A stretch of 64,000 nucleotides of DNA from Alphaproteobacteria bacterium UBA2964. Its GTDB lineage: Bacteria; Pseudomonadota; Alphaproteobacteria; MPNO01; UBA2964. Position 1 is the stretch's first letter. The number at the start of each line of letters is the position of its first letter. Positions 13,309-64,000 of the stretch are shown here, piece after piece. Below the pieces are notes generated by a model, which was not told the DNA's origin, made no database searches, and saw only the letters and a program-made list of their open reading frames with translations. The stretch lies in assembly GCA_905182615.1 (NCBI GenBank), contig CAJJCG010000016.1, positions 114,250-178,249 on the forward strand, written 5' to 3'. Position numbers and translations under genes: made by a program.

Positions 13309-14382
13309 TCAGGATATAAGCGCGTCCGCCTCTTCTCCGCGGAGCTCCCGGTAGAGCCCGAGCTTTTGGTGCACGCCCTTGTCGGAGAAGCTGTAGAGGA
13401 AGCTCTGCGTGTCAGTCTCATGACGATGGGGATACCAGGCCGGCACGACGAAGATGTCGCGCGGACCCCATTCAAACGTCGCATCGCCGATGATGGTCCG
13501 CCCCTGCCCCTCGACCGCGTGATAGACCCAGGCTGCGGTCGTGCAATGGGTCTGGCCGCAAAACCCGGCGGGCATGAGCTGCATGAAGGCCGATAGGGTC
13601 GGCAGGACCGGACCCGCAGTCTCCGGGTTGATGTATTCCATTTTGACACCGTGGCTCGGATCCTGGTGGCTATCCACCTCGGCCAAGCGCAAGAGCGCAT
13701 CGCGGGTTTCGCTATACGGATAGCGGAAGATGGGCGAGGTCGGCGCGGTTGGCGCATGATCCATCGGCAACATGTTAGCGCCAAACCGCGCATGGGAATC
13801 ACCTTCTGGATTGCCGTCGGGAAAGACCGTATTGCCAGTCCAGGGCTCCGCGAACACAGGGCCCAGAAACCGAACCAGAGGCACATCGAGACAGGTCATG
13901 GAGATATGCGGGCCAGGCCCGTCATGGCCGTGGCCGTGCCAAGTCCAGGATGGGTTGAGAATCAGATCACCCGGCGCCATCGCGCATCTTTCGCCATTGA
14001 CCGAGGTGTAGCCGGTCTCGCTCTCGATCACCATCCGGAGTGCGGACGGCGTATGGCGATGCGGCTCGGCGATCTCGCCCGGCATGATGCATTGCAACCC
14101 GGAATAGAGCGCCTCGGTGATACACCGCTTACCGCGCATCGCGGGATTTTCCAGCATCAGCGTGCGCCGTTCGGCATCCTCGCCTGACACCAGACCGCCT
14201 GACTCGACGACGAAAGGACGGATATCATCGAATCGCCAAAGATGGGGCTGTGCGTCAGTCTGCGGGCCCTTGGTTATCATCTCCTTGACCGCTTCCCAGA
14301 CCGGATAAAGATTGTCGTCATCGATCCGCCGATAAAAATCCGCCTTTTCGGGATTGTCCGATTGCGCAAACGTCTCGTCCAT
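13309..14382 (-). CDS. Bicupin ring-cleavage dioxygenase, gentisate 1,2-dioxygenase-like
   Basis: Length and pattern fit gentisate / 1-hydroxy-2-naphthoate dioxygenases: PHLWRFDDIRP, AERRTLMLENP, HRHTPSALRMVIE...GDLILNPSWTWHGHGH, and a second cupin WYPHRHE. Confidence 0.8.
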   Translation of the reverse strand: MDETFAQSDNPEKADFYRRIDDDNLYPVWEAVKEMITKGPQTDAQPHLWRFDDIRPFVVESGGLVSGEDAERRTLMLENPAMRGKRCITEALYSGLQCIMPGEIAEPHRHTPSALRMVIESETGYTSVNGERCAMAPGDLILNPSWTWHGHGHDGPGPHISMTCLDVPLVRFLGPVFAEPWTGNTVFPDGNPEGDSHARFGANMLPMDHAPTAPTSPIFRYPYSETRDALLRLAEVDSHQDPSHGVKMEYINPETAGPVLPTLSAFMQLMPAGFCGQTHCTTAAWVYHAVEGQGRTIIGDATFEWGPRDIFVVPAWYPHRHETDTQSFLYSFSDKGVHQKLGLYRELRGEEADALIS

Positions 14383-15612: not shown

Positions 15613-16215
15613 CTATTTGTCACCCAAGACCTGTCCCACAGCAGCGACGCCACCTTCTTCTCCCCATCGAGGGGATGATTCCAGGTTTACGCCCAATTGA
15701 TCGAGCATCCGCATACAACTCTGATCGACGATGTCTTCTAGAGTCTTCGGACGATTATAAAAGGCCGGAACCGGCGGAAAGATTACAGCCCCAAGATTAG
15801 CTAGCTTTGACATGCTCTCCAGATGTCCCGCATGCAGCGGTGTCTCCCGTACGGCCACGACAAGTTTACGGCGTTCTTTCAAGATAACGTCTGCGGCGCG
15901 GGTAATCAGATCACCCGTATTACCCATCGCTATATTGGACATGGTCTTGATGGAACACGGCGCGATGATCATCCCTTCGCTAAAAAACGAGCCAGAAGAT
16001 ATCGCCGCTCCTATATTTCCAGGAGCATGGACCTCATGAGCTAGGGAACTAATACGCTCTAGTTCGACATCATGTTCCATCTTCAGCGTTAGCTTGGCCG
16101 ATGGACTCATCACAAGATGTATCTCAGTTTGGCCTTCGCTGCGGAGCAACTCCATCAAACGCCAACCATATATCGTTCCAGTGGCACCCGTTATGCCTAT
16201 AATTATTCTTTTCAT
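15613..16215 (-). CDS. ubiX: Flavin prenyltransferase UbiX
   Basis: MKRIIIGITGATGTIYG, PCSIKTMSNIAMG and VAVRETPLH match UbiX. The ATG at 16215 follows a GAGGGAG RBS. Confidence 0.9.
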   Translation of the reverse strand: MKRIIIGITGATGTIYGWRLMELLRSEGQTEIHLVMSPSAKLTLKMEHDVELERISSLAHEVHAPGNIGAAISSGSFFSEGMIIAPCSIKTMSNIAMGNTGDLITRAADVILKERRKLVVAVRETPLHAGHLESMSKLANLGAVIFPPVPAFYNRPKTLEDIVDQSCMRMLDQLGVNLESSPRWGEEGGVAAVGQVLGDK

Positions 16216-16311
16216 TGTTCTACTCCCTCTGGTCATTGTTGAACGAAAGATCGACTAGCAAAGAATGCCAGCCCGGCCAATTGGCAAGACCAGCATCCCT
16301 TAATAAATCAA

Positions 16312-40245: not shown

Positions 40246-41544
40246 ATGGGCCGGATCTGGATGAGCCAGGTCATTGATGCAATAGCCGACCTTGGCCGGA
40301 ACTATTTGGAGCGTCCATCCAGCAAGTCGCCGCTCAAAGCGGCTAAACGCTTGTGTGACGATCTCCTCTCTGATCGCGGCGAGGCATCTGGCACAGCGCT
40401 GGCACGTGAACTTGTTGATCGCTATCTCGCCATGGACGAAGCCGACCAGGACGGGTTCATCGACCTCCTAGCCTCAGATTACAGCTATGCGGCCGATAAA
40501 TTGCAAAACGCTGCCAGCGCGTATGCCCAAAACCCTGGTGACGATACCTACCGTGTTTTACGAAACGCCGTTGAGTCGCCGCGGCAAGAACTCTTACGCC
40601 GGATCAACATGGCGCCAGACGGCACAGCCACGATCGTCAAATTGCGGGAACGGTTACTAAACCGGATAGCGGAAGCTCCCCATCTTAAAACGCTCGACAC
40701 CGACCTCCGGCACTTGTTGAGCTCCTGGTTCAATCGCGGATTCCTGCAGTTTGAGAGAATCGAATGGCGAACCCCTGCCGCCATTCTCGAAAAATTGATC
40801 ACTTATGAAGCGGTGCATGAAATTAAGGGATGGGGCGATCTTCGGCGACGCTTGGCAGATGACCGCCGTTGCTTCGCCTTCTTCCATCCGGCGCTCACCG
40901 ACGAACCCCTAATTTTTGTCGAAGTCGCCCTCACAAACGAACTGTCGGGACAGATCGGGCCTTTACTCGACACGCCGCCAGAGAGCTCCGGGGGCAATCC
41001 GACAACAGCGATCTTTTATTCCATCAGTAATTGCCAGACCGGACTGGCGGGAATTTCCTTTGGCAATTTCCTGATCAAACAAGTGGTGGATGTGCTGTCA
41101 CAGGAGTTACCCACCATCAAAACATTCTCGACATTGTCACCCATTCCCGGGTTCCGTCGCTGGCTCACATCAACACCCGCCGAATTTCGGCCTGATTTTG
41201 TCAGCGACAGTGATTTCGCCGCATTGAGTTCTTCAGGAACATTAGATGACGCCGACAAAAGGTCAGAAATGAAAAAACTGATCACCAAACTTTGCGCGAC
41301 CTACCTTACATCCACCAATAGCCGTAACTTGCCGCTGGACCCTGTCGCCCGCTTTCACCTAGGAAATAGTGCCTCGGTTGAACGTATCAACTGGGATGGT
41401 GATCTCTCCGACAAGAGGATAAGTCAATCGGCAGGACTCATGGTCAATTATCTGTATGCACCAGATCAAATTGTCGGCAACCACGAAGCATTTGTGAATG
41501 AGGGAAAAATCGCAACTTCCTCCAAAGTCCGGGGGTTTCTTTAA
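40246..41544 (+). CDS. Malonyl-CoA decarboxylase
   Basis: LLSSWFNRGFL, YEAVHEI, CFAFFHPALTDEPLIFVEVAL and FYSISNCQTGLAGISFGNFLIKQVV match the MCD family pattern. An AAGGAG RBS is present. Confidence 0.9.
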   Translation: MGRIWMSQVIDAIADLGRNYLERPSSKSPLKAAKRLCDDLLSDRGEASGTALARELVDRYLAMDEADQDGFIDLLASDYSYAADKLQNAASAYAQNPGDDTYRVLRNAVESPRQELLRRINMAPDGTATIVKLRERLLNRIAEAPHLKTLDTDLRHLLSSWFNRGFLQFERIEWRTPAAILEKLITYEAVHEIKGWGDLRRRLADDRRCFAFFHPALTDEPLIFVEVALTNELSGQIGPLLDTPPESSGGNPTTAIFYSISNCQTGLAGISFGNFLIKQVVDVLSQELPTIKTFSTLSPIPGFRRWLTSTPAEFRPDFVSDSDFAALSSSGTLDDADKRSEMKKLITKLCATYLTSTNSRNLPLDPVARFHLGNSASVERINWDGDLSDKRISQSAGLMVNYLYAPDQIVGNHEAFVNEGKIATSSKVRGFL

Positions 41545-47938: not shown

Positions 47939-48886
47939 TCAAACACCGTGTGAGGCGGCGACCAACGGGTCCCATTCGATATCGTCATCGCGGACCGCAC
48001 CGATCAACTCGGAGATTTCTTTGATACCGCGTTCATCACACCATTCTTCGAGATCATCAATAATGGTGGTTAGCGCCGTTGGGTTACGGAAACCGGCATA
48101 GCCGATCCCGACACCGGAAGCACCGGCGAGCATATATTCAACGACATCTTCCGCCTTGGTCACACCGCCGATGCCGATAACCGGGATCGAGCATTCCTGA
48201 GCGACCTGATAGACCATCCGCATCACAATCGGTTTGAGCGCAGGCGATACCAGCCCACCAAATTTATTACCCAATGCCGGGCGGAAATTGTCGGTCCTGA
48301 TTTTCAGGCTCAAGAAGGTGTTGCACAGCACCACCGCATCGGCACCGGCTTCTTCCGCCGCGACGGCGATTGAGACGATATCTCCAGCATTTGGCGACAG
48401 CTTCGCCCAGACCGGTTTATCAGTTGCCGCACGAATGCCATCCATCACTAATTTAGTGTGTTCGGAATGCATCGCGAAGTTGCCACCGCTCGGCGCTTTG
48501 GTCGGGCAGGAAATATTGACTTCGATCACATCAACGCCATCAACCGAGAGGTCACGAGTCATCGCCGCAAAATCCTCAGCCGTATCAGCGGAAACACTGA
48601 CGATCAGCGGCGGTTCCCATTTGTTATATTCAGGAACAATATTTTCGAGAAAATAATCGATGCCTTTTCCGGGCAGTCCGATCGACTGGATGATGCCAGC
48701 TTCGGTTTCCGCCATGCGCGGTGTTGGATTGCCAAGACGCGGCTCGCGGCAAATGGTTTTGGCGACCAGTCCACCGAGCCGATTGAGGTCAATGACATCG
48801 CCGTATTCCCACGAAAATGCGCCCGACGCCGGCATGATTGGGTTCTGAAGGGTGATATCCCCTATTTTTACGGAAAGATCTACCAT
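47939..48886 (-). CDS. Dihydroorotate-dehydrogenase-fold (class 1B PyrD-like) flavoenzyme
   Basis: LQNPIMPASGAF, QSIGLPGKG, IEVNISCPT, and the GIGGV / GIGYAGF pattern are present. The ATG at 48886 overlaps the upstream TAG (ATGGTAG). Confidence 0.85.
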   Translation of the reverse strand: MVDLSVKIGDITLQNPIMPASGAFSWEYGDVIDLNRLGGLVAKTICREPRLGNPTPRMAETEAGIIQSIGLPGKGIDYFLENIVPEYNKWEPPLIVSVSADTAEDFAAMTRDLSVDGVDVIEVNISCPTKAPSGGNFAMHSEHTKLVMDGIRAATDKPVWAKLSPNAGDIVSIAVAAEEAGADAVVLCNTFLSLKIRTDNFRPALGNKFGGLVSPALKPIVMRMVYQVAQECSIPVIGIGGVTKAEDVVEYMLAGASGVGIGYAGFRNPTALTTIIDDLEEWCDERGIKEISELIGAVRDDDIEWDPLVAASHGV

Positions 48887-49752
48887 CCGACGGCCTCCTG
48901 CATATTGAAACACGGTCCATCGCGACACACCCGGCGCAGCGTCTTTTCGCCATCGACTTCGAATGTCCGCATACAAATGTAACAAGCGCCCAGCGCACAG
49001 CACATGTTTTGTTCCATCGCCACCTGACCAGCGACATCATGTGATTTGCCGAGACGCTTCATCAGGGTCAGCAGCCGGTTCGATCCACAGGTAAAGAAGG
49101 CGTCCGCCTTACCGTCCGCGATCAGGCCTTCGAGGATCTTCTCGACATTATCGACATTGCTGCTGTCATCGGTATCGACAACTTCAATCACGTTGGCGCC
49201 AAGCCCTTCAAACAGGTCGCGCGACATGACAACTTCCGGGTTCCGCGCACTTAGGATCGCGGTGACGCCGACATTGTGTTCTGCCGCCAATTGAGACAGT
49301 GGGGCGAGCGTCGCCAAGCCAACACCGCGACCAAGCACGACAATGTTCTTCCAGCCTTCCTCCAGCCAGAAGCCTACGCCGAGCGGTCCAACGATATTGA
49401 ATTCATCGTCCGGTTCGAGCATCGCCATGCCCTGAGTGCCACGACCCTCTTTCTTATAAAGAAACTCGAGACGTTTATTCTCGCTATCGACCCGATATAT
49501 ACTCATCGGCCGGCGCATCCAAACTTCGGCGCCATCCGGCGTCGGGCACAGAAGATGAAAGAACTGCCCGGCCTTAGCGGTAAGGGCACGATCCGGCACA
49601 TCGACCACCATCTTAAGGTACTCGTCATTGACGTAATCATTCGACACGACAATCGAAATAAACTCTCCGGCGGGTTTATCCGGATGAGGGTCAACCTCTC
49701 CAATACGGATAGGCTTGGCGGAGTATTTATCCTCCGGCGTCAGATCAGTCAT
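48880..49752 (-). CDS. PyrK-like FAD/NAD(P)-binding electron-transfer subunit with a C-terminal 2Fe-2S cluster
   Basis: RRPMSIY (FAD-binding RxxS), GRGVGLATLAPL, and the C-terminal cluster motif MCCALGACYIC...VCRDGPCF are present. Confidence 0.85.
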   Translation of the reverse strand: MTDLTPEDKYSAKPIRIGEVDPHPDKPAGEFISIVVSNDYVNDEYLKMVVDVPDRALTAKAGQFFHLLCPTPDGAEVWMRRPMSIYRVDSENKRLEFLYKKEGRGTQGMAMLEPDDEFNIVGPLGVGFWLEEGWKNIVVLGRGVGLATLAPLSQLAAEHNVGVTAILSARNPEVVMSRDLFEGLGANVIEVVDTDDSSNVDNVEKILEGLIADGKADAFFTCGSNRLLTLMKRLGKSHDVAGQVAMEQNMCCALGACYICMRTFEVDGEKTLRRVCRDGPCFNMQEAVGW

Positions 49753-49849
49753 GACTTATTGGCCCTTATTGCTTCTCTCTTGATCGCGTTTATAGCACTT
49801 AATTGTAACAAAATAAAGACATGTTCCATTTTTGGCACAGCCTTTATCG

Positions 49850-51193
49850 CTATCGCGTTCCGAACAGCATGGTGATGTTAATCCGGTGATTTTCATAACC
49901 AGCCGCGAAGTTTGGCGCATCAGTACCGTGAAACAAGCGGGAATCAAACAAAACTGCCCGGTTCTCACCATAAGGGATAGCGATCTTCTGATCTCTCTGC
50001 CCCTCCAGGTACGTCTTGATCGCAGCTTTATCCTGATCGTAATCCGTTACCGCCCAGTCATCGAGTGGCAGCACGGTGTAAATCTCCAGACCACCCTGCT
50101 TTGACGCGAGATTGGCACTGTCAGGCGTGACCCAAAAATTAAGACTGACCGCAGCATCGTCAGCATGGACATCAATAGGTATGTCGCCCACCAAACCTTT
50201 AAAGGCCCAAGCCTGAGTCAGCGGATGATCACCAAGAATCTGTGGAAACTTTTTCTTAACGTCTTCGGCGATCTGCAACAGAAGAGGACAGGCCAAACCA
50301 TCTTCGAGATAGGCCGCCAAAAACCCAGTGATATGAGAAAAATCGAACCAGACGGTGCTGCACAGCAGATAACGTTGCAAACGCGCCAAGGCCTCAACTG
50401 TTAGAAAGTCATCAAACGATGCGATTCTAGGGGTCCCGGTTTGAAAGGCCTTTGAAATTTCATCCACTGCCAATTGCGAGTTTACGGTGCCGGAAGGAAG
50501 CTCCGCCGCATCGGCAATGAAATTTGGATAGTTATAACTCTCACCGAACAAAGTGAGTTGCTCAGAAGATAACTCCACGACGGCGTTATCATCGTTGGGC
50601 CAGTCAATCCGCTTCATCGCGAATTCATACGCCCGCGCCAATGAGTCTACTCGTTCAGTGTCGCGTTTCTGAGTCGCGAGATAACGGAACTGATCAATAT
50701 CGTGAAGCAGCTTTGCCCGTGTTGTCGATGCCAGCGACGGATCCAAATTGCCTGCCCGGTTTTCGCCGCGCCGCAAATCCATCGTACGAGCGAAGAAATC
50801 CATCGCCCGGTCACGCTTTCCAAGCCGAAGCCATAACTTTCCCAAGGCCAGTTGTGCGCCGTAGTGTTCAGGATTGATGACAATGACCTCCGCATAGGCT
50901 TCCGCAGCTTCTTCATACCGCCCAGCCTGTTGCAAAGCTTTGGCCCCACTCCACAGCGCCGGCTCATAGTCAGGATCAACAGCGCTTGCCTTTTGGAATT
51001 CAACAATCGCTTCGTCAACTCGACCTGAACTAGCAAGTAGGACACCGAGATTATGCAACACCGCCGGATAATCGGGTCGTTCGGCGAGCACTGCCCGATA
51101 GGCTATTTCCGCCTCCTCCAACTTGCCCTCGCTGTGATAGCCAACGCCTTGTGCTGCACGTTCAATGATATCGCTCGACATGATAGAGATCAC
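49850..51193 (-). CDS. TPR-repeat protein fused to a 2OG/Fe(II)-oxygenase-like domain
   Basis: The N-terminus has TPRs (GKLEEAEIAYRAVLAERPDYPAVLHNLG...). The C-terminus has DVHADD (HxD), LFHGT and HRINITMLF. The GTG at 51193 overlaps the XRE stop; an alternative ATG is at 51181. Confidence 0.7.
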   Translation of the reverse strand: MISIMSSDIIERAAQGVGYHSEGKLEEAEIAYRAVLAERPDYPAVLHNLGVLLASSGRVDEAIVEFQKASAVDPDYEPALWSGAKALQQAGRYEEAAEAYAEVIVINPEHYGAQLALGKLWLRLGKRDRAMDFFARTMDLRRGENRAGNLDPSLASTTRAKLLHDIDQFRYLATQKRDTERVDSLARAYEFAMKRIDWPNDDNAVVELSSEQLTLFGESYNYPNFIADAAELPSGTVNSQLAVDEISKAFQTGTPRIASFDDFLTVEALARLQRYLLCSTVWFDFSHITGFLAAYLEDGLACPLLLQIAEDVKKKFPQILGDHPLTQAWAFKGLVGDIPIDVHADDAAVSLNFWVTPDSANLASKQGGLEIYTVLPLDDWAVTDYDQDKAAIKTYLEGQRDQKIAIPYGENRAVLFDSRLFHGTDAPNFAAGYENHRINITMLFGTR

Positions 51194-52074
51194 CCCGGCT
51201 GGCGCGCGATAAGCTGGCGCATGAATTTTGCTGCCTCAGCACCGCGCAGGGCCCGCCGCCAAAGATCCTGCACTGTGCGTTCGTGCAACTCGAGTGCCTC
51301 AGGTGCAGCGGTAATCATCGCGATCCCGCCATGCACGTTGGGTTGTTCGCCGAGGCGGAATGGACTCATGGCTAACACTTTGCGATCAGCCTGACGAAAA
51401 ATCTGAAAACTAGTATGTGGCAAAGTACCGGGCACGATGCCGATCTGAACGGCAATCGGCTCGTCCTCCATCATGGCGACGAGATGCTCTGCCTCTGCTC
51501 GCGCCCGCGCCCGGCGTTCGCACATCACATTTTCGGGCAGGTCGAGCCGCCCGACGAGACCGTTCTGCAGAAACCGTTCGATCTCCGCGCCTGAAATCAA
51601 ATTCAAGATTCCTGGCTGCCGTTCAAGATACGTCTCTTTGCGTTGCTTCAAGATCGGCAGGAGCCCGTGAACCTGTTCTTCTGCCCTATCGCGATCAATT
51701 TCTTCCGCCGGAATACTTTCGATCAAACATTGTTCGAGGGTCTGATCAAAAACATCGGAGGCCAGCAGGAAAGAAACTGGACCGGCCAATACGACGATAT
51801 GCTCTGTAGTTTCTTCGATTTGCCGAAGGCGTTCAAAGAATGCGACCGCCGATGGGATATACTCAACACCGACACCGAGCAAGGTGGGTACCGATACATC
51901 TAGCAAATCGGCCAGTTTCTCCAGTGTCTCGATCTTGGCGACATCGCCTTTTTCAAATCGATAAAGCGCGGTCCGTGAAATACCGATACGCGTGGCGATC
52001 TCATCAGCACTTAGCCCGGAGGCAAGCCGGAAGGCCTTGAGCCGGTCACCAATATCGTCAAATCGGATCGTCAA
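51190..52074 (-). CDS. XRE-family HTH regulator with a ~220-aa C-terminal domain (DUF5753-like by eye)
   Basis: The HTH is LSADEIATRIGISRTALYRFEKG. The TTG start overlaps the upstream TGA (TTGA at 52071-52074). No in-frame ATG precedes the HTH. Confidence 0.8.
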   Translation of the reverse strand: MTIRFDDIGDRLKAFRLASGLSADEIATRIGISRTALYRFEKGDVAKIETLEKLADLLDVSVPTLLGVGVEYIPSAVAFFERLRQIEETTEHIVVLAGPVSFLLASDVFDQTLEQCLIESIPAEEIDRDRAEEQVHGLLPILKQRKETYLERQPGILNLISGAEIERFLQNGLVGRLDLPENVMCERRARARAEAEHLVAMMEDEPIAVQIGIVPGTLPHTSFQIFRQADRKVLAMSPFRLGEQPNVHGGIAMITAAPEALELHERTVQDLWRRALRGAEAAKFMRQLIARQPG

Positions 52075-54413
52075 GCAGCACCCGAGTTTTTAGCTCCGGC
52101 AATCGCCTCAATAATTTCAGACGGCATGAGAGGCGCCCGCGTCAGATGAACATCGAAAGGCTTCAAGGCATCTTCAACCGCAGAAATAATCGCCGACGGT
52201 GCCGGCACGACGCCACATTCTCCAACGCCCTTCACACCGAGCGGGTTTAAGGGCGACGGCGATTCATGATGGATGATATCAATATTGGGCATCTCGGTTG
52301 ACGAGATCAGCAGATACTCAGCAAAATTCGTGGTTACCGGATTGGCATCAGCGTCATACCCCATCCATTCGTACAAGGTATTGCCGATACCATGCGCGGT
52401 GCCGCCCTGAACCTGACCGTCGACAATCATCGGATTGATAATCGTGCCGCTGTCATGCGAGATCACATAGTTCAAGATCTTCACCCCACCGGTCTCAATA
52501 TCGACCTCGACTTCGACCACCGCAGTACCACAGGCAAAAGCTAAGTTATCGAGAACGACATGCTCGGTTGCTTCCATTCCAGGCTCAATCCCGCCCGGCA
52601 ACGCATAACCGGGCGTCCCGCCGACAGCATGGGCGACCTGTCCTAACGTCACCTTCAGATCAGGTACTCCACGAACATGGATTTCGCCATTCTCGATCTC
52701 GAGATCCTCTTCCGAGGCTTCCAGCATATGCGCCGCGACCTTGAGCGCCTTATCGCGCACTTTCTCGGCCGCGACATGCGCCGACGACCCGGCGACCACG
52801 GCGAGGCGGCTATTCGAAGTTCCGATGCCCAATGAGATCGTTCCAGTATCGCCAGCGGTCACAGTGATATTCTCCATATCGCCGCCAAATTTCTCGCCGA
52901 CGATCTGAGCCATCATCGTATGCGTGCCCTGCCCAATCGCAGTACCACCAGTATAGACATGGATTTTCCCGGACGGCCCTATCCGAACGGTAACTGATTC
53001 AAAAGGCCCACGACCGGTACCTTTTACGTAGTTGGCGAGACCGATGCCGATATAGCGACCCTCAGCGCGGGCCTGTTTCTGACGCGCGCGGAAACCAGCC
53101 CAATCGGCTTTGTCCAAAGCGCTCTGCTGACACACCGGGTAGTCACCCGAGTCCAGCACCACCGGCATGCCGCCACGTGTTTTGAGCGGTTTTTCGTAAG
53201 GCATTTTATCGCCGGGGATCAGATTTCGGCGGCGCACCTCATCGCGTTCGATGCCCAGCTCTGATGCGACACGATCCATCAACCGTTCCATGACGAACAC
53301 ACCCTGTGGGTGACCAGCGCCGCGCACCGGCGTTACCGGTACCTTATTGGTCAGCGCCAGCCGGACATGGGTACTGAACGCAGGGACTTCATAAGGTAAA
53401 GGAATGGTTTCCGCCGCGTTATACGGCAAATTCACACCACGCGCGGTAAACGCGCCATGGTCATGAATAACGGCGCTTTTAATGCCAAGGATTAGGCCTT
53501 CTTCATCCACAGCAATTTCTGCTTCCCAGTATTGGTCGCGTTCCTGGGTCGTCGTGATGAAATGCTCGCGACGGTCTTCCGCCCATTTGATCGGGCTATT
53601 GATCATCCGGGTGGCGAGCGTCAGCACAATGTCTTCTTGATAAACCACCAGCTTGGGGCCAAACCCGCCACCAACATCGGGGGTAATTACCCGTATCTGG
53701 TTTTCATTATGGCCGGTCATGTCGGTGAAAGTCGTTCGCAGAGAATGCGGCATTTGAGTCGAGCTCCACAGCGTCACCTGGTCAGCAAACTCGTCAAACG
53801 ACGCAACACAGCCTCGACATTCGATAGAATGCGACCCCCCGCGATGAATCCAAAGCGATTCCGAAAAAGTATGAGCCGCATTGGCAAAGGCGCCAGCGAC
53901 GTCGCCATAATCCATGTTGAATTCAGCGAGGAGATTATGTTCGGCATCCCGATGCGCAACAGGAGCGCCCGGCGCCATCGCATCGCGACAATCGGCAGAC
54001 GCGGGCAACGGGTCATAATCAACATCGACCAATGTCGCAGCATCTTCAGCAATATATCTGTTGTCAGCAATTACGACGGCGACTGGCTCACCGACATAAG
54101 TCACTTCATCATAGGCAAGTGCCGGACGATCCCGGTTCTGCTTGTAAGATGCGCTCGGCATGCCAACGACCAACCGCTCATTGATTAAATGGGGTCGGAT
54201 ATCATCCATCGTGAAGACAGCATGAACACCCGGATGTGCCAGCGCGGCGTCGGTATTAATGCCGTTGATCGCGGCATGAGCGAAGGGGCTGCGGACGAAC
54301 GCTGCCTGCAACATGCCGGGAAGACGGATATCGTCGATAAAGTTGGCTTCCCCCCGTAACAACGTAGGGTCTTCCAGCCGTTTGGCACGGGTTCCAAATA
54401 CTTTCCAAGCCAT
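52071..54413 (-). CDS. Molybdopterin-dependent hydroxylase large subunit (xanthine dehydrogenase / CoxL family), orphan
   Basis: RLEDPTLLRGEANFIDDI, HAAINGINTDAA and VRGAGHPQGVFVMERLMD are present in a 780-aa protein. No adjacent FAD or 2Fe-2S subunit gene is present. Confidence 0.9.
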   Translation of the reverse strand: MAWKVFGTRAKRLEDPTLLRGEANFIDDIRLPGMLQAAFVRSPFAHAAINGINTDAALAHPGVHAVFTMDDIRPHLINERLVVGMPSASYKQNRDRPALAYDEVTYVGEPVAVVIADNRYIAEDAATLVDVDYDPLPASADCRDAMAPGAPVAHRDAEHNLLAEFNMDYGDVAGAFANAAHTFSESLWIHRGGSHSIECRGCVASFDEFADQVTLWSSTQMPHSLRTTFTDMTGHNENQIRVITPDVGGGFGPKLVVYQEDIVLTLATRMINSPIKWAEDRREHFITTTQERDQYWEAEIAVDEEGLILGIKSAVIHDHGAFTARGVNLPYNAAETIPLPYEVPAFSTHVRLALTNKVPVTPVRGAGHPQGVFVMERLMDRVASELGIERDEVRRRNLIPGDKMPYEKPLKTRGGMPVVLDSGDYPVCQQSALDKADWAGFRARQKQARAEGRYIGIGLANYVKGTGRGPFESVTVRIGPSGKIHVYTGGTAIGQGTHTMMAQIVGEKFGGDMENITVTAGDTGTISLGIGTSNSRLAVVAGSSAHVAAEKVRDKALKVAAHMLEASEEDLEIENGEIHVRGVPDLKVTLGQVAHAVGGTPGYALPGGIEPGMEATEHVVLDNLAFACGTAVVEVEVDIETGGVKILNYVISHDSGTIINPMIVDGQVQGGTAHGIGNTLYEWMGYDADANPVTTNFAEYLLISSTEMPNIDIIHHESPSPLNPLGVKGVGECGVVPAPSAIISAVEDALKPFDVHLTRAPLMPSEIIEAIAGAKNSGAA

Positions 54414-57419: not shown

Positions 57420-58428
57420 ATGAACGACACCCCTAATCCAAACTAAATATTTGCCCGCGCCAAAGCGGCGCATGATGCTGACAACGTTACAGAGGCCGAG
57501 GCCCTTTATAAGTAGCTATTGGACATAGCACCCGGACACCCAGACGTTCTGCATTTACTGGGAGTCCTATACGGCCAAATAGGGCGGTTCGACGGCGACC
57601 GGCGTCGCCATTGCTAAAGTGTCTGGTGATCCCAGTTACCACAACAATTTTGGAAACGTTCTGTTGCAGATGAAACGGTGGGATAAAGCTGCAACAGCCT
57701 TTAGTAAATCCCTTGAGATAGCACCCTTACCAATCTTAATGAGACGCCAACAAATCAGCGCTGGCATGTATCTGCCCTCGCCGCCAAGGCCGTCACACAA
57801 CACGAGACCGGTGACGACGCTACAACCACACCTCTGCCATACATGGATGGTTTGATAACCCTTCCGGAATTAAGCCTGCCTGACGGAACCGACGTGCAAG
57901 CCCTTGGCGATTTACTGGCAAACCATCCGAGTTGTATCTGGGAGCGCAGCGACGCCACGACACGTGCCGGCGCACAGTTAAGCAACCTCGCCAAGGACAC
58001 TGACCCAACCATCGGGGTCTTTATTACAGCGCCGAAAGAAAAAATCGAAAGCTATATCAGCACGAAACAGCCTGACCCCGGCCATCCGTTCACGGCGCAT
58101 ATCCCCGAAAGTTGGGACTACAGCATCTGAGCAACGATTCTTGATCAAGACGGGCATCATGCATCCCGCCGCCTGAGTCTCAAGGGTATATTACCTCGAA
58201 GTGCCGGAAGCCATCACAGATCCGACGAATGAAGCGCAGTCTGGCTGGATTGAATTTAGCGCACCAGGCTATGGTATAACGCCTGTCCACCCACTAATTA
58301 TCCGCCGGATCATGCCCGAACCGAGCAAATTGATCTTTTTCCCTTCTTATTTATTCCATCGAACAGCCCCACTTTCGGGTACTGCCCGCCGGATCAGTAT
58401 TTCCTTTAATGTCATTCCGACAAAATAG
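57420..58428 (+). pseudogene. Degraded TPR + 2OG-Fe(II)-oxygenase (2OG-FeII_Oxy_5-like) gene
   Basis: The reading frame is broken into at least three frames (57619-57855, 57843-58130, 58201-58428). In-frame stops start at 57444, and a TGA at 58174-58176 lies where VSRVYYLEVPEA begins. The C-terminal end KLIFFPSYLFHRTAPL...RISISFNV is the family signature. Confidence 0.7.
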
Positions 58429-58532
58429 CGCAAATGAACCATCGTCGGTGAGTTTTACCTGCCGGTTTCTTCCTGTATAAACGTCCCACCGGTCAGCTCA
58501 TTTCCGGTAGAGAGACACATAAAGATAGAACG

Positions 58533-59390
58533 ATGAAACCTGCTGCTTTTGAATATCACGCACCGACCACAATCGATGAAGCCGTCGCCCTTCTGGCGGA
58601 ACATGCACCGAATGATGGTCGCATTCTTGCCGGTGGCCAAAGCTTGGTGCCAACCATGGCTTTCCGGCTGGCTCGGCCAACGCACCTCATAGACATTAAT
58701 AATGTCGCGAACCTCGACAAGCTCGCCATAGAAAGTGGCGCCCTGTGTATTGGCGCGACGGTACGGCATGCCCAGTTCCACACGCCGGCCTGTGATGGCG
58801 TGCTGGGACGCTTGCTGACTGACGTCGTGAGTAATATCGCCCATTACCCGATCCGCCAACGCGGTACGTTCTGTGGCAGTGTCGCCCATTCGGACCCGGC
58901 CTCGGAATGGTGCATGGTCGCCGCAACGCTGGATGCGACAATGATCGCTCAAAGTGCCTCCGGTGAAAGGCTCATTCCCGCCAAAGATTTTTTTGAAACC
59001 GTCATGACCACCGCGCTGAACGAAGACGAGCTGTTGCGGGAAGTCCGCATTCCAGTGCTTAGCGATGACACAGTCTACGGGTTTCAGGAATTCAACCGCC
59101 GAGCCGGTGACTTCGCTATTTCGATGACCCTCGTCACCTATCAGCTTGAGGGTGGTAAAATCGTTGATCCACATGTCGGTGTCGGTGGTGCCGAGGACCG
59201 GCCCCGCCGCATTGCAGAAGCAGAAGCCGCTCTTGCCGGACAAACCCCAGGTGATGACGCTTTCCGAGCTGCGGCAGATGCCGCCGCCGCTGCAATCGAC
59301 CCGATGGAAGACCACGCAACAAATGCTCAGTACCGCCGCGATCTTACCGCGACGCTGGTCCGCCGGGCGCTGGAGAATGCCGCATCATGA
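58533..59390 (+). CDS. Mo-hydroxylase FAD-binding (medium, CoxM-like) subunit
   Basis: FEYHAPTTIDEAVALL, ILAGGQSLVPTMAFR and GTFCGSVAHSDP are present. Confidence 0.9.
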   Translation: MKPAAFEYHAPTTIDEAVALLAEHAPNDGRILAGGQSLVPTMAFRLARPTHLIDINNVANLDKLAIESGALCIGATVRHAQFHTPACDGVLGRLLTDVVSNIAHYPIRQRGTFCGSVAHSDPASEWCMVAATLDATMIAQSASGERLIPAKDFFETVMTTALNEDELLREVRIPVLSDDTVYGFQEFNRRAGDFAISMTLVTYQLEGGKIVDPHVGVGGAEDRPRRIAEAEAALAGQTPGDDAFRAAADAAAAAIDPMEDHATNAQYRRDLTATLVRRALENAAS

Positions 59391-59869
59391 GTGACAAAAA
59401 AGACATAACGCTCACCATTAACGGACGGGACCATAACGTCTCGGTCGATCCACGCTGGACGCTCGCCGACGTCATCCGCGACCATTGCGGACAAACCGGT
59501 ACGCATCTTGGCTGCGAACATGGCATTTGCGGCGCTTGCACAATTCTCGTCGATGATTCTCCAGTCCGGTCCTGCCTGATGTTTGGCATTCAGGCCGATG
59601 GCAAAAAAATCCGCACGGTCGAAGGTCTCGCCAATGGCGATGAGTATCACCCGCTGCAAAGGGCCTTTATAGAAAATCACGCTTTGCAATGCGGCTATTG
59701 CACGCCAGGCTTCCTGATGTTGGCGACTGGAATTCTTGAAGCACAGCCCGATATCAGCGATGACGATTTGAACGATGTTCTCTCGTCAAATCTGTGTCGC
59801 TGCACCGGCTACGCCAATATCATCAAGGCCGTCCGCATCGCGCGCGACGAAATGAAGGCGGCAAGCTGA
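59387..59869 (+). CDS. Mo-hydroxylase [2Fe-2S] (small, CoxS-like) subunit
   Basis: GCEHGICGACTILVD and QCGYCTPGF...CRCTGY cluster motifs are present. It overlaps the upstream gene by 4 nt. Confidence 0.9.
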   Translation: MSDKKDITLTINGRDHNVSVDPRWTLADVIRDHCGQTGTHLGCEHGICGACTILVDDSPVRSCLMFGIQADGKKIRTVEGLANGDEYHPLQRAFIENHALQCGYCTPGFLMLATGILEAQPDISDDDLNDVLSSNLCRCTGYANIIKAVRIARDEMKAAS

Positions 59870-62190
59870 TGGCAACCGCAACAAACAGAATGCTCGGTCA
59901 TCTAGGCGATAGTGTCGAGCGGCTGGAAGATCCACCGCTGGTCACCGGCAAAGGTCGCTTTGTTGGTGACATCAATTTCCCTGACCAATTGCATATGCGG
60001 ATCGTCCGTAGTGACCACGCCCACGGTAAAATCATATCTGTCGACACATCGGCCGCCGAAGCGGTTCCCGGTGTCGTCGCGGTCTGGACCACCGAGAATA
60101 TTGACGACGTCCCCCCAATTGATTTTCGCGAAGGCAGCGATCCAACCCTGGCGTTGTTTCGCCAATATCCACTGGCCCGCGAGCTCGTACGCTATGTCGG
60201 TGATCCCGTGGTCGCGGTCTTTGCTGAAGATCCGTACACCGCCGAAGACGCGGCCGAGCTGGTTGTTATTGAAATCGAACCGCTACCGGTTCTGATTAAC
60301 GCCGACGACCCGCCACAAGATTTCAAAGGCCAAGCAACAACCGAAGCTGCCATTGTCGAACAAGGTTATGGTGACATTGATACAACTTTCGCCAACGCCT
60401 TTAAGGTCGTGGAAATCGACGTGAAGGTCAGCCGTCATACGGGTGTTCCCATGGAATGCCGCGGCGCGATTGGCCGCTATGATGAAGCCCGCGACGTTCT
60501 TGAAATGTATGGCGCGGCAAAAGTGCCGCATCGCAACCGGGACACGTTGTGCCGTATGTTAAACCGGCCAGCCTCTGGCCTTCATCTGTTTGAAGGCCAT
60601 ACCGGCGGCGGATTTGGTATCCGTGGCGAACTTTATCCAGAAGATGTCCTCGTCTGTGTCGCCGCTATGCGACTACGTAGACCGGTAAAATGGATTGAAG
60701 ACCGTCGGGAACATTTGATGGCAGCCAACCATTCCCGCCAGCAACGCCATATTATCCGCGCTGCTGTGGCGGAGGATGGTGAAGTTGTCGGGCTCGATGA
60801 CGAGCTTTATCTCGATCAGGGCGGCTATATCCGTACCCACGGCACCCGCGTCGCCAACATGACGACGGGCACACTGCCCGGCCCATACCGATTTCCGGTA
60901 TACCGGTCTATCTGTCACTTCCGCCTGACCAATAAAACACCAGCGGCGACCTATCGCTCGCCGGGCCGCTGCGAAAGCACCTTTGTGCGCGAACGCCTGA
61001 TGGATGCCGTCGCTGTCGCAATGGATATGGACCCCATCGCTTTACGCCGCCGCAACCTGATCTCGCTCGAGGAAATGCCCTATGGTCGCGCCCTCGATGT
61101 ATTGGGCGATTCCGTTGAACATGACCCAGGAGATTATGCCGGTCTGCTCGATCAGGGTCTGGCGCAAATCGGCTGGGACGATCTCCAGAAAAAACTCGCC
61201 AAACGCCGCGCCAATGGCGAGATGGTCGGCGCTGGTATTTCGATGTTCTTCGAGAAATCCGGTCTCGGCCCATCAGATGGCGCCAAGATTTTCGTCGACA
61301 ATGAAGGCTTTATTGAAGTCGTTACCGGCGGCGCCTCTATCGGCCAGGGTTTTGAAACCGCGATGGCGCAGATTGCCGCCGAAGACCTTGGGACTGACTA
61401 TCGCCGTATTCGCGTTGTTCATGGTCAGACGAACCGGATCGATTACGGAGTCGGCGCCCATGCGTCACGCGCCACCGTTTTGACCGGTACAGCAGTGAGC
61501 CTGACAGCGCAGGCCGTTCGCGCCAAGGCGCTGGATATGGCGGCAGAGCTGCTGCAAACATCAGCAGATTCTTTGACCATCACCGACGGCGTTGTCCATG
61601 CGAAGGACAACCCTACTGGTCCATCATTGACGCTTGGCGAAATCGCCGAAGCATTGATCCCGACCTCCAAACTTCGTGGTGATCGTGAGCCTTATTTGAA
61701 GGGCGAAGAGTGGTTCCACATTGAACATCAAACCTACCCGTATGGTCATCATATTGCGGTCGTAAAAGTTGATCCGGATACCGGTGGCGTCGAGATCGAA
61801 AAATATTTCATCGCCTATGATATTGGCCGGGCAATCAATCCAATGATGATTGAAGGCCAGCTGGTTGGTGGTTTAGCGCAAGGGGTGGGCGGCGCTCTGT
61901 TTGAAGAATTCACCTATTCCGAAACCGGTGACCCACAGGCAGTAACCTTTGCTGATTACCTGATACCTACCTTGCAGGAAGTTCCCGATCCGGAAATTCT
62001 GCTGACCGAAGATTTCCCGAGCATTCGCACACCCCTGGGTATTAAGGGCGCAGGCGAAGCTGGGATAACCGGTGCAGCGGGTGCCATTGCTTCCGCGATT
62101 GATAATGCCATTGGCATCCCCGGTGCTGTGACGGAAACACCCGTTTCACCGCAGCGCCTGAAGAAAATATTGAGCGAACACGGCAAATAA
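59869..62190 (+). CDS. Mo-hydroxylase molybdopterin-binding large (CoxL-like) subunit
   Basis: VERLEDPPLVTGKGRFVGDI and ATYRSPGRCESTFVRERLMD are present in a 773-aa protein. The ATG overlaps the coxS-like TGA (TGATG at 59867-59871). Confidence 0.9.
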   Translation: MATATNRMLGHLGDSVERLEDPPLVTGKGRFVGDINFPDQLHMRIVRSDHAHGKIISVDTSAAEAVPGVVAVWTTENIDDVPPIDFREGSDPTLALFRQYPLARELVRYVGDPVVAVFAEDPYTAEDAAELVVIEIEPLPVLINADDPPQDFKGQATTEAAIVEQGYGDIDTTFANAFKVVEIDVKVSRHTGVPMECRGAIGRYDEARDVLEMYGAAKVPHRNRDTLCRMLNRPASGLHLFEGHTGGGFGIRGELYPEDVLVCVAAMRLRRPVKWIEDRREHLMAANHSRQQRHIIRAAVAEDGEVVGLDDELYLDQGGYIRTHGTRVANMTTGTLPGPYRFPVYRSICHFRLTNKTPAATYRSPGRCESTFVRERLMDAVAVAMDMDPIALRRRNLISLEEMPYGRALDVLGDSVEHDPGDYAGLLDQGLAQIGWDDLQKKLAKRRANGEMVGAGISMFFEKSGLGPSDGAKIFVDNEGFIEVVTGGASIGQGFETAMAQIAAEDLGTDYRRIRVVHGQTNRIDYGVGAHASRATVLTGTAVSLTAQAVRAKALDMAAELLQTSADSLTITDGVVHAKDNPTGPSLTLGEIAEALIPTSKLRGDREPYLKGEEWFHIEHQTYPYGHHIAVVKVDPDTGGVEIEKYFIAYDIGRAINPMMIEGQLVGGLAQGVGGALFEEFTYSETGDPQAVTFADYLIPTLQEVPDPEILLTEDFPSIRTPLGIKGAGEAGITGAAGAIASAIDNAIGIPGAVTETPVSPQRLKKILSEHGK

Positions 62191-62223
62191 CCGTTTCGCG
62201 CCACCAAGAAAAAGGAGATATCC

Positions 62224-63648
62224 GTGGCCAACAAGGATTTAAGAGACTGGATTAGTGATCTGGAAGCAAACGGCCAGCTGCAGGTTGTATCCGGTGCAGA
62301 CCGTGAGGAAGAGATTGGCGGCATTGTCGATATCTATATGCGGCAAATGACCAACCCGGCCGTGATGTTCGATAATATTCCGGGCTACCCGAAGGACTTT
62401 CGGGTTCTCGCCAATATCCTGACATCCGTTCCGCGGATCAATCTCGCACTAGGCGAGCCGATTGATAAATCCGAAGTCGAGCTTGTCGATTATTGGCGGA
62501 AATACATGAAGGATCAACCGACCCATGCGCCGGTTGAGGTTAATGGCGGACCGATCTTAGACAACGTGTTCGAAGGCGCGGACATCGACATCACCAAGAT
62601 TCCGACCCCGAAATGGCACGAACATGACGGCGGCTATTTCATCGGAACGGCCTGCATGGTGATCATGAAAGATCCGGATTCAGGCTGGATCAACTATGGC
62701 GCCTATCGCGTCCAGTCACATGGCCCCAACACGGCATCACTGATGACGTCCAAGGGCAAACATGGTGACATAATTCGCGACAAATATCACGCCAAGGGCG
62801 AACCCTGCCCAATCGCTGTTGTTGTCGGCATGCATCCGGCTCTGTTCATGGTTGCCGGGCTTGAAATGCCTTATGGCAAAAATGAATATGACAGTGCTGG
62901 TGGCCTGCTCGGCGAAGGTGTTGAAATCATCAACATGCCAAAGACCGGACTACCGGTGCCCGCCAATGCCGAGATCGCCTTTGAGGGTTATATCCATCCC
63001 GATGACCGGGTTGACGAAGGGCCCCTTGGCGAATGGACCGGATATTACGCCGGTGGGGCAACGACCCAGCCCGCTATTAGGATCGAAACCTTTATGCATC
63101 GCGATGACCCCATTCTGATGGGCGCCATCCCGGCTGTACCGCCTAACGATGACACGTTCTATCGCGGCACCTATCGCTGTGGCGCCGTGTGGAACCAGCT
63201 CGAAGCCGCAGGCATTCCCGAAGTTAAAGGTGTCTGGGCGCATGAAGCTGGTGGCAGTCGGATGTGGCTTACCGTCTCGATTAAGCAGATGTATGGCGGC
63301 CATTCGAAACAAGCCGGGCTGATCGCTTCACAATGTCATGCCGGGGCCTATGCCAATCGCTGGGTCATTGTCGTCGATGACGATATCGATCCCGCTAATC
63401 TAAATGACGTGATCTGGTCAATGTGTACGCGCTGCGACCCGAAAGACGGAGTCGAAATCCTCAACGGTTGCTGGAGTACCCATCTCGATCCGATGAGCTA
63501 CAGCCACGAAGACCCGCGCAACTCGCGTGTCGTCGTCGATGCTTGTATTCCCTACCGCCGCAAGGACACATTCCCGATCGTCGCTCGGAACTCGAAAGAG
63601 CTCGATGACCGTATTTTCAAGAAGTTCGGCGACGTCCTTCCGAAATAA
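62224..63648 (+). CDS. UbiD-family (prenylated-FMN-dependent) decarboxylase
   Basis: DLRDWISDLEANGQL, HDGGYFIGTACMV and EGPLGEWTGYYAG are present. The GTG start lies 8 nt after an AAGGAG RBS and 33 nt after the large-subunit stop. Confidence 0.9.
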   Translation: MANKDLRDWISDLEANGQLQVVSGADREEEIGGIVDIYMRQMTNPAVMFDNIPGYPKDFRVLANILTSVPRINLALGEPIDKSEVELVDYWRKYMKDQPTHAPVEVNGGPILDNVFEGADIDITKIPTPKWHEHDGGYFIGTACMVIMKDPDSGWINYGAYRVQSHGPNTASLMTSKGKHGDIIRDKYHAKGEPCPIAVVVGMHPALFMVAGLEMPYGKNEYDSAGGLLGEGVEIINMPKTGLPVPANAEIAFEGYIHPDDRVDEGPLGEWTGYYAGGATTQPAIRIETFMHRDDPILMGAIPAVPPNDDTFYRGTYRCGAVWNQLEAAGIPEVKGVWAHEAGGSRMWLTVSIKQMYGGHSKQAGLIASQCHAGAYANRWVIVVDDDIDPANLNDVIWSMCTRCDPKDGVEILNGCWSTHLDPMSYSHEDPRNSRVVVDACIPYRRKDTFPIVARNSKELDDRIFKKFGDVLPK

Positions 63649-63681
63649 TCGATCTAATTGCGGCGTAAAACGCGCAAACAA

Positions 63682-63705
63682 AAACGGGGCCGCAAGGCCC
63701 CGTTT
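63682..63705. terminator. Bidirectional Rho-independent terminator
   Basis: AAACGGGGCC-GCAA-GGCCCCGTTT is a perfect 10-bp stem with a GCAA loop. A/T runs flank it on both sides, between convergent genes. Confidence 0.75.
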
Positions 63706-63729: not shown

Positions 63730-64000
63730 TTAGCCTTTGTAGACACCTTCTGCCTTGGCCTGCTCGATAATATCGAGCATCTTCGATGGAGACATCGGCA
63801 AGGACGTCGGGCGAATACCAATAGCATCACCAATTGCGTTACCGACAGCCGCCATGGTCGGTACCACTGGCACCTCACCAACACCACGGAGCCCAAACGG
63901 ATGGGCGGGATTTGGCACTTCAACCATGATCGTATCGACCATCGGCACGTCAGAGGCTACCGGCATGCGATAATCAAGGAAGCCCGCATTTTGCAGGCGA
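63730..64000 (-). CDS. C-terminal part of a third Mo-hydroxylase large subunit (5' part off-window)
   Basis: The frame is open to the window edge. ...FLDYRMPVASDVPMVDTIMVEVPNPAHPFGLRGVGEVPVVPTMAAVGNAIGDAIG is the conserved C-terminal end of aldehyde oxidase / xanthine dehydrogenase large subunits. Confidence 0.8.
   Translation of the reverse strand, partial: RLQNAGFLDYRMPVASDVPMVDTIMVEVPNPAHPFGLRGVGEVPVVPTMAAVGNAIGDAIGIRPTSLPMSPSKMLDIIEQAKAEGVYKG

Follow-up and report, generated by a model that had tools for sequence, protein, structure and literature searches.

A four-gene unit joining a Kdh-like molybdenum hydroxylase to a PhdA-related UbiD decarboxylase in uncultured Alphaproteobacteria, a candidate for N-heteroaromatic acid breakdown

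On which compound does a three-subunit molybdenum (Mo) hydroxylase act whose genes run directly into the gene of a UbiD-family decarboxylase? This question is raised by a locus of Alphaproteobacteria bacterium UBA2964, a metagenome-assembled genome (MAG). We analyzed a stretch of 64,000 nucleotides of its contig CAJJCG010000016.1 (G000:C16:114250-178249), which we call the window; positions are those of the window unless a contig or locus is named. The initial annotation, made from the letters and the open reading frames (ORFs) alone, had proposed that the two enzymes hydroxylate next to a ring heteroatom and reversibly decarboxylate a (hetero)aromatic carboxylate. We find it reasonably probable that the two enzymes successively convert one and the same N-heteroaromatic acid, which is probably a dicarboxylic acid of the pyridine or quinoline type.

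The four genes are listed in Table 1 together with the other features. They encode the medium (M), small (S) and large (L) subunits of the hydroxylase and the decarboxylase. Direct reading of the sequence shows that the stop codon of the M gene overlaps the start codon of the S gene (ATGA, 59387-59390) and that the stop codon of the S gene overlaps the start codon of the L gene (TGATG, 59867-59871). The ORF of the large subunit has an alternative GTG start at 59794, and because of the TGATG we place the start at the ATG at 59869. Behind the stop codon of the L gene (TAA, 62188-62190) follow 33 nt with the sequence AGGAG and then the GTG of the UbiD gene. Thus, the gene coordinates, the overlaps and the gap of the initial annotation agree with the ORFs, the Pfam assignments and the sequence, and on near-identical metagenome contigs gene callers give the four lengths of Table 1. 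The order M-S-L-UbiD is also present in genomes whose UbiD protein is just 73-74% identical to the protein of the window, and in one of these the stop codon of the L gene overlaps the UbiD start. The overlaps, the short gap with its ribosome binding site and the order kept elsewhere are most naturally read as a single transcription unit, and the spacing at the junctions suggests translational coupling.

The unit appears to be closed by a terminator, as had been proposed. At exactly the predicted site the sequence can form a G+C-rich stem of 10 base pairs with a 4-nt loop, and the surrounding fold has an energy of -28 kcal/mol (z = -4.0 against shuffled sequences). On the + strand the T-tract is interrupted (TTTCCGTTT); the - strand has the better one (TTTTTGTTTG). 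We therefore suggest that the convergent gene from 63730 uses this hairpin as well. A simple consensus terminator scan did not include this hairpin among its matches. Sites found with a sigma-70 consensus were no more common than in shuffled sequence, and none was located upstream of 58533.

Table 1. Features of the operon and its surroundings (window numbering unless a contig is given)
Feature	Position	Strand	Basis or remark
FAD (flavin adenine dinucleotide)-binding medium subunit M, CoxM/KdhM type, 285 aa	58533..59390	+	ORF and Pfam
[2Fe-2S] small subunit S, 160 aa	59387..59869	+	ORF, Pfam and eight cluster cysteines
Molybdopterin-binding large subunit L, 773 aa, Kdh-like 'type A'	59869..62190	+	Pfam, solved relatives, motifs
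UbiD-family decarboxylase dependent on prenylated flavin mononucleotide (prFMN), 474 aa, GTG start, PhdA-related 'clade X'	62224..63648	+	Pfam, TIGR00148
Shine-Dalgarno sequence AGGAG, 6 nt ahead of the UbiD GTG start 62224	62213..62217	+	read from sequence
G+C-rich hairpin, putative terminator in both directions, separating the operon from the convergent Mo-hydroxylase operon	63682..63705		fold and sequence
3' end of the large subunit (L') of a second, convergent three-subunit Mo hydroxylase	63730..64000	-	open-ended ORF
Frameshifted relic of a tetratricopeptide repeat (TPR)/2-oxoglutarate (2OG)-oxygenase gene, directly upstream, outside the functional unit	57420..58434	+	tblastn
ubiX, flavin prenyltransferase	15613..16236	-	TIGR00421, 234 bits (cut-off 109)
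PhtD-like gene of the same genome	G000:C16:181738-182733		about 3.5 kb past the window end, about 3.8 kb downstream of UbiD

All four proteins carry Pfam domains with scores far above the gathering cut-offs. In the medium subunit these are FAD_binding_5 (138 bits) and CO_deh_flav_C (66 bits), in the small subunit Fer2 and Fer2_2, and in the large subunit Ald_Xan_dh_C, MoCoBD_1 and MoCoBD_2. None of the eight cluster cysteines is missing from the small subunit (C43, C48, C51, C63 and C102, C105, C137, C139). The large subunit has the active-site loop TYRSPGR (361), the motif GGGFGIRG (246) and the catalytic Glu within KGAGEAG (726). By domains and motifs the three proteins are thus the large, small and medium subunits of a Mo hydroxylase of the xanthine oxidoreductase (XOR) family. 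When compared to solved structures the large subunit is most similar to KdhL (7DQX, 575 bits), followed by QorL of quinoline 2-oxidoreductase (370 bits) and mycobacterial CoxL (369 bits). Weaker relatives are the Sulfolobus-type protein 4ZOH (285 bits), 4-hydroxybenzoyl-CoA reductase (265 bits) and PaoC (125 bits). KdhL is therefore the nearest of the characterized N-heterocycle dehydrogenases, against which the initial annotation had wished to see the subunit placed, and none of them is an ortholog. The Kdh enzyme of Paenarthrobacter nicotinovorans hydroxylates C2 of a 6-hydroxypyridine ring (PMC8305194). Residues which mutagenesis or structure has shown to be important in KdhL (PMC8305194) are kept in the aligned window protein, namely F269/G270, the catalytic E748 and, in the AYRAPG loop, R383 and P385. 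The substrate-specific residues of KdhL are altered (E345 to G325 and W551 to H531). As the residues which hold the Kdh substrate are changed, the window enzyme presumably has a different substrate.

None of the three Mo subunits reaches an NCBIfam equivalog cut-off, and the top sub-threshold matches are a 'group 5' CO dehydrogenase and the archaeal glyceraldehyde dehydrogenase. These matches bring two other readings into play. According to the first, the Mo enzyme is a CO dehydrogenase and the UbiD protein is unrelated to it. Orthologs of the large subunit are automatically named 'carbon-monoxide dehydrogenase large subunit' and the gene order is like coxMSL. The loop AYRCSFR of form-I CO dehydrogenase is, however, replaced by TYRSPGR, TIGR02416 gives 388 bits (cut-off 991) and NF040766 600 bits (cut-off 950), and accessory genes of the coxDEFG type are not adjacent. 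Form-I CO dehydrogenase was thus rejected, and we give this reading next to no chance. The second reading is an aldehyde route. The Mo enzyme would oxidize a (hetero)aromatic aldehyde to the acid and UbiD would then decarboxylate the acid, comparable to the furandicarboxylic acid branch of 5-hydroxymethylfurfural (HMF) degradation. The best equivalogs of M, S and L are indeed the beta, gamma and alpha subunits of glyceraldehyde dehydrogenase (232, 194 and 559 bits), and the linkage data presented below are equally compatible with a sequence of aldehyde to acid to CO2 and arene. However, all three scores are below the respective cut-offs of 350, 290 and 790 bits. In addition, the bit scores of 4ZOH and PaoC are low beside the score of KdhL, with which the window protein has the loop YR(S/A)PGRxESTF in common. 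We regard the aldehyde route as unlikely, although it is the strongest of the competing readings.

The decarboxylase is recognized by the Pfam models UbiD_N (46 bits), UbiD (206 bits) and UbiD_C (103 bits), all above cut-off, and by the general model TIGR00148 (273 bits, cut-off 245). For none of the specific NCBIfam UbiD models is the cut-off reached. The canonical ubiquinone UbiD was rejected since PRK10922 gives 150 bits against a cut-off of 788. The closest solved relative is PhdA (7PDA, 371 bits, 40.8% identity). All other solved members are considerably more distant: HudA (180 bits), VdcC (163), TtnD (162), HmfF (146), E. coli UbiD (139), Fdc1 (134), AroY (133), AnInD (124) and phthaloyl-CoA decarboxylase (49). 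The motifs NYGAYR (157), KGKHG (177), NEYDSAGG (220) and EGPLGEW (265) align with PhdA and HudA. We take NYGAYR, the His of KGKHG, the Glu of NEYDSAGG and EGPLGEW to be the Mn/K and metal/prFMN ligands and the catalytic Glu-Arg-Glu set. The genome contains two ubiX genes above the TIGR00421 cut-off, one of them inside the window (match region G000:C16:129913-130458, corresponding to 15664-16209; Pfam Flavoprotein), and the UbiX of the window could make the prFMN cofactor for UbiD in trans. Profile searches and alignment thus agree on the UbiD family in architecture, in motifs and in the availability of ubiX. Because the catalytic and cofactor residues are kept and ubiX is present in the genome, both the Mo hydroxylase and UbiD look functional.

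The phylogenetic placement of the decarboxylase was one of the checks proposed at the outset. In a FastTree phylogeny the protein of the window, the UbiD proteins of the 80 related loci described below and one paralog of the same genome form a clade of 82 members with 100% local support. PhdA is the nearest characterized protein and lies outside this clade, grouping with a Streptomyces protein. With this placement and an identity of 40.8% the protein was rejected as an ortholog of PhdA. A search of 5.8 billion proteins yielded no named or characterized homolog of UbiD or of the large subunit. The homologs recovered, with identities as low as 71% for UbiD and 64% for the large subunit, came only from metagenomes, MAGs and unnamed assemblies. 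Close characterized orthologs working in unrelated pathways, which would have spoken against the initial proposal, did thus not turn up for either enzyme. In a plasmid collection the best match is an uncharacterized UbiD protein on plasmid 2 of Aromatoleum aromaticum EbN1 (WP_011255029, locus L100, 45% identity). Its gene is part of the anaerobic phthalate island, where it stands behind an ABC importer and has a UbiX/UbiD pair on either side; one of the two pairs is the phthaloyl-CoA decarboxylase.

UbiD reactions are reversible. One might therefore think of an anaerobic type of metabolism in which UbiD carboxylates its substrate, as phenylphosphate carboxylase does, and the Mo enzyme acts as a reductive dehydroxylase similar to 4-hydroxybenzoyl-CoA reductase. 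Sub-threshold matches do exist to the beta subunit of phenylphosphate carboxylase (PpcB, 265 bits), to HcrA (362 bits) and to HcrC (153 bits). However, these scores are far below the cut-offs of 469, 995 and 258 bits, and HcrB reaches 82 of 405 bits. Only residues 132-281 of the medium subunit are matched, as the best-scoring stretch, by the HcrB model of 321 positions; the subunit therefore seems to have no counterpart of the extra Fe-S insertion specific for the beta subunit of 4-hydroxybenzoyl-CoA reductase. A CoA ligase, a phenylphosphate synthase and the small Ppc subunits are all missing from the operon, and the hosts are pelagic and soil MAGs. Both enzyme identities were rejected, and we consider this anaerobic reading to be very improbable.

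Is the neighborhood of the two enzymes meaningful at all? The genome is crowded with paralogs, since 34 UbiD genes and at least 32 genes for Mo large subunits are found in 2.45 Mb. The two enzymes could merely be neighbors which work on different compounds, and one subclade of the UbiD tree is indeed without a hydroxylase. We scanned one genome per species and collected 80 related loci with UbiD proteins 70-99% identical to the protein of the window. The hosts are all uncultured Alphaproteobacteria, namely marine 'Rhodospirillaceae', MAGs labelled Defluviicoccus, and soil MAGs of the Xanthobacteraceae and Stellaceae. In 44 of the 80 loci the UbiD gene has a gene for a Mo large subunit at a distance of no more than 3.5 kb, compared to about 6% expected from gene density (p ~2e-31). 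In 30 of the loci this subunit is orthologous to the window subunit ('type A', 55-97% identity, with at least 55% identity to the window protein as threshold). The type-A subunit stays linked through rearrangements and in distant genomes, as we observe the orders M-S-L-UbiD, L-UbiD alone, M-L-UbiD-S, and L-S-M divergent from UbiD. Within these 30 loci the identities of UbiD and of the large subunit co-vary (Spearman 0.895). The type-A linkage occurs in three subclades of the UbiD clade, one of which is basal, and a further subclade of 13 members is paired with a different Mo hydroxylase, 'type B', which is only about 30% identical. The full M-S-L-UbiD unit is also found, with UbiD 73-74% identical, in unrelated surroundings, for example beside the tuf-secE-nusG-rpl cluster in L105, which is the case with the overlap of L stop and UbiD start. 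Because of the frequency of linkage, the orthology, the rearranged orders, the co-variation and the portability, the pairing is best regarded as a co-inherited functional module and not as chance neighbors. Together with the junctions, whose spacing suggests translational coupling, this makes a mere adjacency improbable in our view. The comparisons thus describe what appears to be a portable four-gene module in many uncultured marine and soil Alphaproteobacteria.

We also asked which other genes recur at these loci. De novo clustering of the neighboring ORFs of the 80 loci, based on a crude ORF caller which is noisy in the high-GC soil contigs, revealed only L, S, M and a PhtD-like family of about 330 aa as widely recurrent. 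The latter has no Pfam or NCBIfam match. It is similar to PhtD, the 4,5-dihydroxyphthalate decarboxylase (PDB 9JP7, 193 bits), and from this single solved homolog the protein is predicted to be a decarboxylase. A member of the family is located near the orthologous Mo hydroxylase or near UbiD in 19 of the 80 loci. In locus L012 the genes for the PhtD-like protein, M, S, L and UbiD follow one another in this order and are all co-directional, and in L039, L041 and L059 the order M-S-L-PhtD-like is divergent from (TctC)-UbiD. In the genome of the window the PhtD-like gene is not in the four-gene operon. It adjoins instead a lone large subunit which is 59% identical to the subunit of the operon. 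A counterpart is present at 13262-14272 of locus L001. We therefore suggest the PhtD-like decarboxylase as a conserved further partner of the operon. A TctC-type carboxylate-binding protein is encoded next to UbiD in several loci, and in the clustering it recurs in six soil-type loci only. That decarboxylases of two kinds occur together with a hydroxylase and a carboxylate-binding protein suggests that the substrate has at least two carboxyl groups.

We suggest that the reactions proceed as follows. The Kdh-like M-S-L enzyme, with its Mo-pterin, two [2Fe-2S] clusters and FAD, would introduce a hydroxyl group derived from water at an electron-poor ring carbon beside the nitrogen and would pass the electrons to an acceptor. 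The PhdA-related UbiD, with prFMN from a UbiX encoded elsewhere in the genome, would remove a ring carboxylate independently of oxygen. The PhtD-like decarboxylase nearby probably takes off the second carboxylate. Two orders are conceivable. Hydroxylation could activate the ring for decarboxylation, comparable to the para- or ortho-hydroxyl of the VdcC and PhtD substrates. Alternatively, decarboxylation could expose a C-H which is then hydroxylated. We prefer an N-heteroaromatic substrate because both nearest characterized relatives have such substrates; KdhL (575 bits) is well ahead of QorL (370 bits), as is PhdA (371 bits) of the remaining solved members, none of which exceeds 180 bits. The part of the initial proposal which concerns hydroxylation beside a heteroatom combined with (de)carboxylation is thus in line with the nearest relatives KdhL and PhdA. 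It is weakened in so far as the Mo enzyme might act on an aldehyde.

Several observations weigh against consecutive steps on one N-heteroaromatic acid. No transporter, regulator or ring-cleavage gene is present within the operon; that neither a CoA ligase nor a ring-cleavage set is attached was already stated in the initial annotation and holds for the operon. In this genome about 2.5 adjacent pairs of UbiD and large-subunit genes are expected by chance and seven are observed. The best sub-threshold equivalogs of the Mo subunits belong to the archaeal glyceraldehyde dehydrogenase, and aldehyde oxidation is therefore possible. Finally, a sister subclade of 27 UbiD proteins has no Mo hydroxylase nearby, and thus the decarboxylase is apparently able to work in other contexts. 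In the one locus group of this subclade which was read (L081-L084, UbiD 77% identical) the UbiD gene stands behind genes for an AMP-dependent CoA ligase, a metallo-beta-lactamase and a glyoxalase. This may reflect a different, CoA-linked use of this decarboxylase clade. Also in the vicinity are genes for a thioesterase, a tryptophan 2,3-dioxygenase and an FMN dehydrogenase. We searched the literature for a quinolinate or 6-hydroxyquinolinate decarboxylase and for gene-level work on uracil dehydrogenase and barbiturase and found nothing relevant.

The MAG itself (2.45 Mb, 73% complete) encodes, besides its UbiD proteins and Mo large subunits, 17 PhtD-like proteins. The highest score to the general UbiD Pfam model (260 bits) is reached by a paralog on contig C45. 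As the at least 32 large subunits of the XOR family compare with no more than about 10 genes for [2Fe-2S] subunits and about 8 for FAD subunits, most large subunits must be 'orphans'. Seven UbiD genes have a large-subunit gene within 3 kb (on contigs C14, C16, C18, C59, C60, C66 and C120), and the operon lies within a 30-kb stretch which holds four Mo large-subunit genes. The expansion of UbiD is order-wide. Among 30 relatives, 26 genomes carry 26-41 UbiD genes each, and of the five families sampled within the order four are represented by these genomes; 60 genomes from other alphaproteobacterial families have 0-3, except for two with 8 and 11. In the literature we found no paper describing an expansion of UbiD in marine Alphaproteobacteria.

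Next to the operon, the second Mo hydroxylase is cut by the window end. The full set L'-S'-M' is present in a near-identical contig and in locus L001 (9507-13185). Its large subunit is 27% identical to the one of the operon, and the models HcrA and XdhA match best, below cut-off. Locus L001, from a MAG with a 98% identical UbiD, also carries an intact TPR/2OG-oxygenase gene (436 aa) just upstream of and co-directional with the FAD gene. With this gene as tblastn query the relic of the window is found in four pieces of alternating frames with 40-68% identity, and a match at the nucleotide level to the intact gene is no longer left. It thus appears that the four-gene core was kept while its upstream neighbor decayed. 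Further upstream of the operon (47939-54413) are genes for a PyrD/PyrK-like pair (47939-49752), a TPR protein and a lone Mo large subunit of 780 aa. The pair is of the class 1B dihydroorotate dehydrogenase type, and its PyrD-like member passes the NCBIfam cut-off. In locus L102 (UbiD 74% identical) PyrD/PyrK, TPR protein and lone large subunit are grouped around M-S-L-UbiD, together with an isochorismatase-family gene and a dienelactone hydrolase. The window also encodes a malonyl-CoA decarboxylase (40246-41544) and an amidase. Prompted by the PyrD/PyrK-like pair, the malonyl-CoA decarboxylase and the amidase, one can speculate about a route from orotate via uracil to barbiturate, for which the sole support is that the PyrD/PyrK pair and the TPR gene are also near the operon in L102.

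What would follow from an N-heteroaromatic substrate? Kdh-like, PhdA-like and PhtD-like enzymes would together strip carboxyl groups from polycarboxylates of the pyridine or quinoline type. An order of uncultured Alphaproteobacteria from sea and soil, with about 30-40 UbiD genes per genome of 2.5-6 Mb, would then mineralize carboxyl-rich, N-containing aromatic dissolved organic matter. The order-wide UbiD expansion and the many Mo and PhtD-like genes of this MAG point to an unrecognized guild which decarboxylates aromatic dissolved organic matter. To us the expansion of decarboxylase and hydroxylase genes across the lineage is a more surprising result than the operon. More tentatively, and rather as a conjecture, the operon could belong, as a single cassette, to a 'hydroxylate and decarboxylate' toolkit which works without oxygen and is spread over the whole lineage, a lineage of specialists for N-aromatic dissolved organic matter whose coxL-like genes are miscounted as CO oxidation genes. 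We note that large-subunit orthologs (P0126, P0150, P0199-P0206 and others) are automatically named CO dehydrogenase without having the active-site loop of this enzyme. With such names, surveys of genes for CO oxidation in the sea could go wrong and arrive at inflated estimates. The operon offers a defined and testable entry into an uncharacterized catabolism of N-heteroaromatic acids, and UbiD enzymes are of interest in biocatalysis as catalysts of reversible carboxylation.

How does the operon compare to known systems? With Kdh (KdhLMS, 6-hydroxypseudooxynicotine 2-oxidoreductase) the hydroxylase shares the L-M-S subunits, the YRxPGRxESTF loop, the Phe-Gly pair, the Arg and the catalytic Glu; however, Kdh lacks such a link to a UbiD decarboxylase. 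With PhdA the decarboxylase has the catalytic motif EGP(F/L)GEW and the cofactor-binding motifs in common. In phenazine there is no C-H adjoining a nitrogen which a Mo hydroxylase could attack. PhdA/PhdB of Mycolicibacterium fortuitum is a phenazine-1-carboxylate decarboxylase (PDB 7PDA; PMC10850782). The gene of the Streptomyces relative which groups with PhdA is paired with ubiX and, unlike the UbiD gene of the window, has no Mo hydroxylase beside it.

The initial annotation had drawn the analogy to HmfABC and HmfFG of furan-dicarboxylate metabolism. In Cupriavidus basilensis HMF14 these proteins, a furoyl-CoA dehydrogenase and a 2,5-furandicarboxylate decarboxylase, likewise bring both enzyme families into one pathway for a heteroaromatic acid. 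The hmf genes are organized in two separate operons. HmfABC acts on a CoA thioester and requires a ligase and a hydratase, which are both absent from the operon of the window. As the decarboxylase gives 146 bits with HmfF against 371 with PhdA and an AMP-ligase or crotonase is neither in the operon nor adjoining it, an Hmf furan cluster was rejected. The best published analogy is instead the lumazine cluster I of Cupriavidus sp. LA-1 (Doi, Maeda & Takaya 2025; PMC12391406), which contains LuDH (L-S-M), the DHL isomerase, XCDC, UbiX and a pterin deaminase. There LuDH hydroxylates lumazine twice, the DHL isomerase of the Amidohydro_2 type turns the product into xanthine-8-carboxylate, and the UbiD protein XCDC together with UbiX decarboxylates the latter, as was shown biochemically (PMC12391406).

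Since the enzyme families are paired alike (PMC12391406), one may ask whether the window simply contains an ortholog of the lumazine/pterin cluster I or of the furan Hmf system. As a stand-in for LA-1 we used a cluster-I-like locus which plasmid tblastn revealed on a Sinorhizobium meliloti megaplasmid (labelled pSymA). It holds two amidohydrolases, UbiD, UbiX, a permease, a GTPase, L-S-M and GntR, an architecture as described for Rhizobiales. The UbiD protein and the large subunit of the window are only 29.9% and 29.3% identical to their counterparts there, and cluster I was rejected as an ortholog. A tblastn search of the whole genome (73% complete) at 1e-5 yields no match to the DHL isomerase subunits, and the sole homolog of the cluster-I GTPase lies on another contig. 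For the Hmf system, a furoyl-CoA ligase or hydratase is missing from the operon in addition to the distance of HmfF. The chance that the operon is an ortholog of one of these known clusters is thus very small. In outline it does resemble the lumazine system, as in both a three-subunit XOR-family Mo hydroxylase is linked to a prFMN-dependent UbiD, UbiX is supplied by the genome and an N-heteroaromatic compound is, or would be, broken down. Because of the identities of about 30% and the missing isomerase homolog the operon does not appear to be a member. It also differs in that no COG0523 GTPase, deaminase or permease is adjacent and that hydroxylase and decarboxylase are directly coupled. The cooperation of a Mo hydroxylase with a prFMN-dependent decarboxylase thus has one recent precedent with a biochemical demonstration, lumazine in 2025; to this the operon adds a different, uncharacterized pair of clades, Kdh-like and PhdA-like, their direct coupling in a four-gene unit and the PhtD-like partner.

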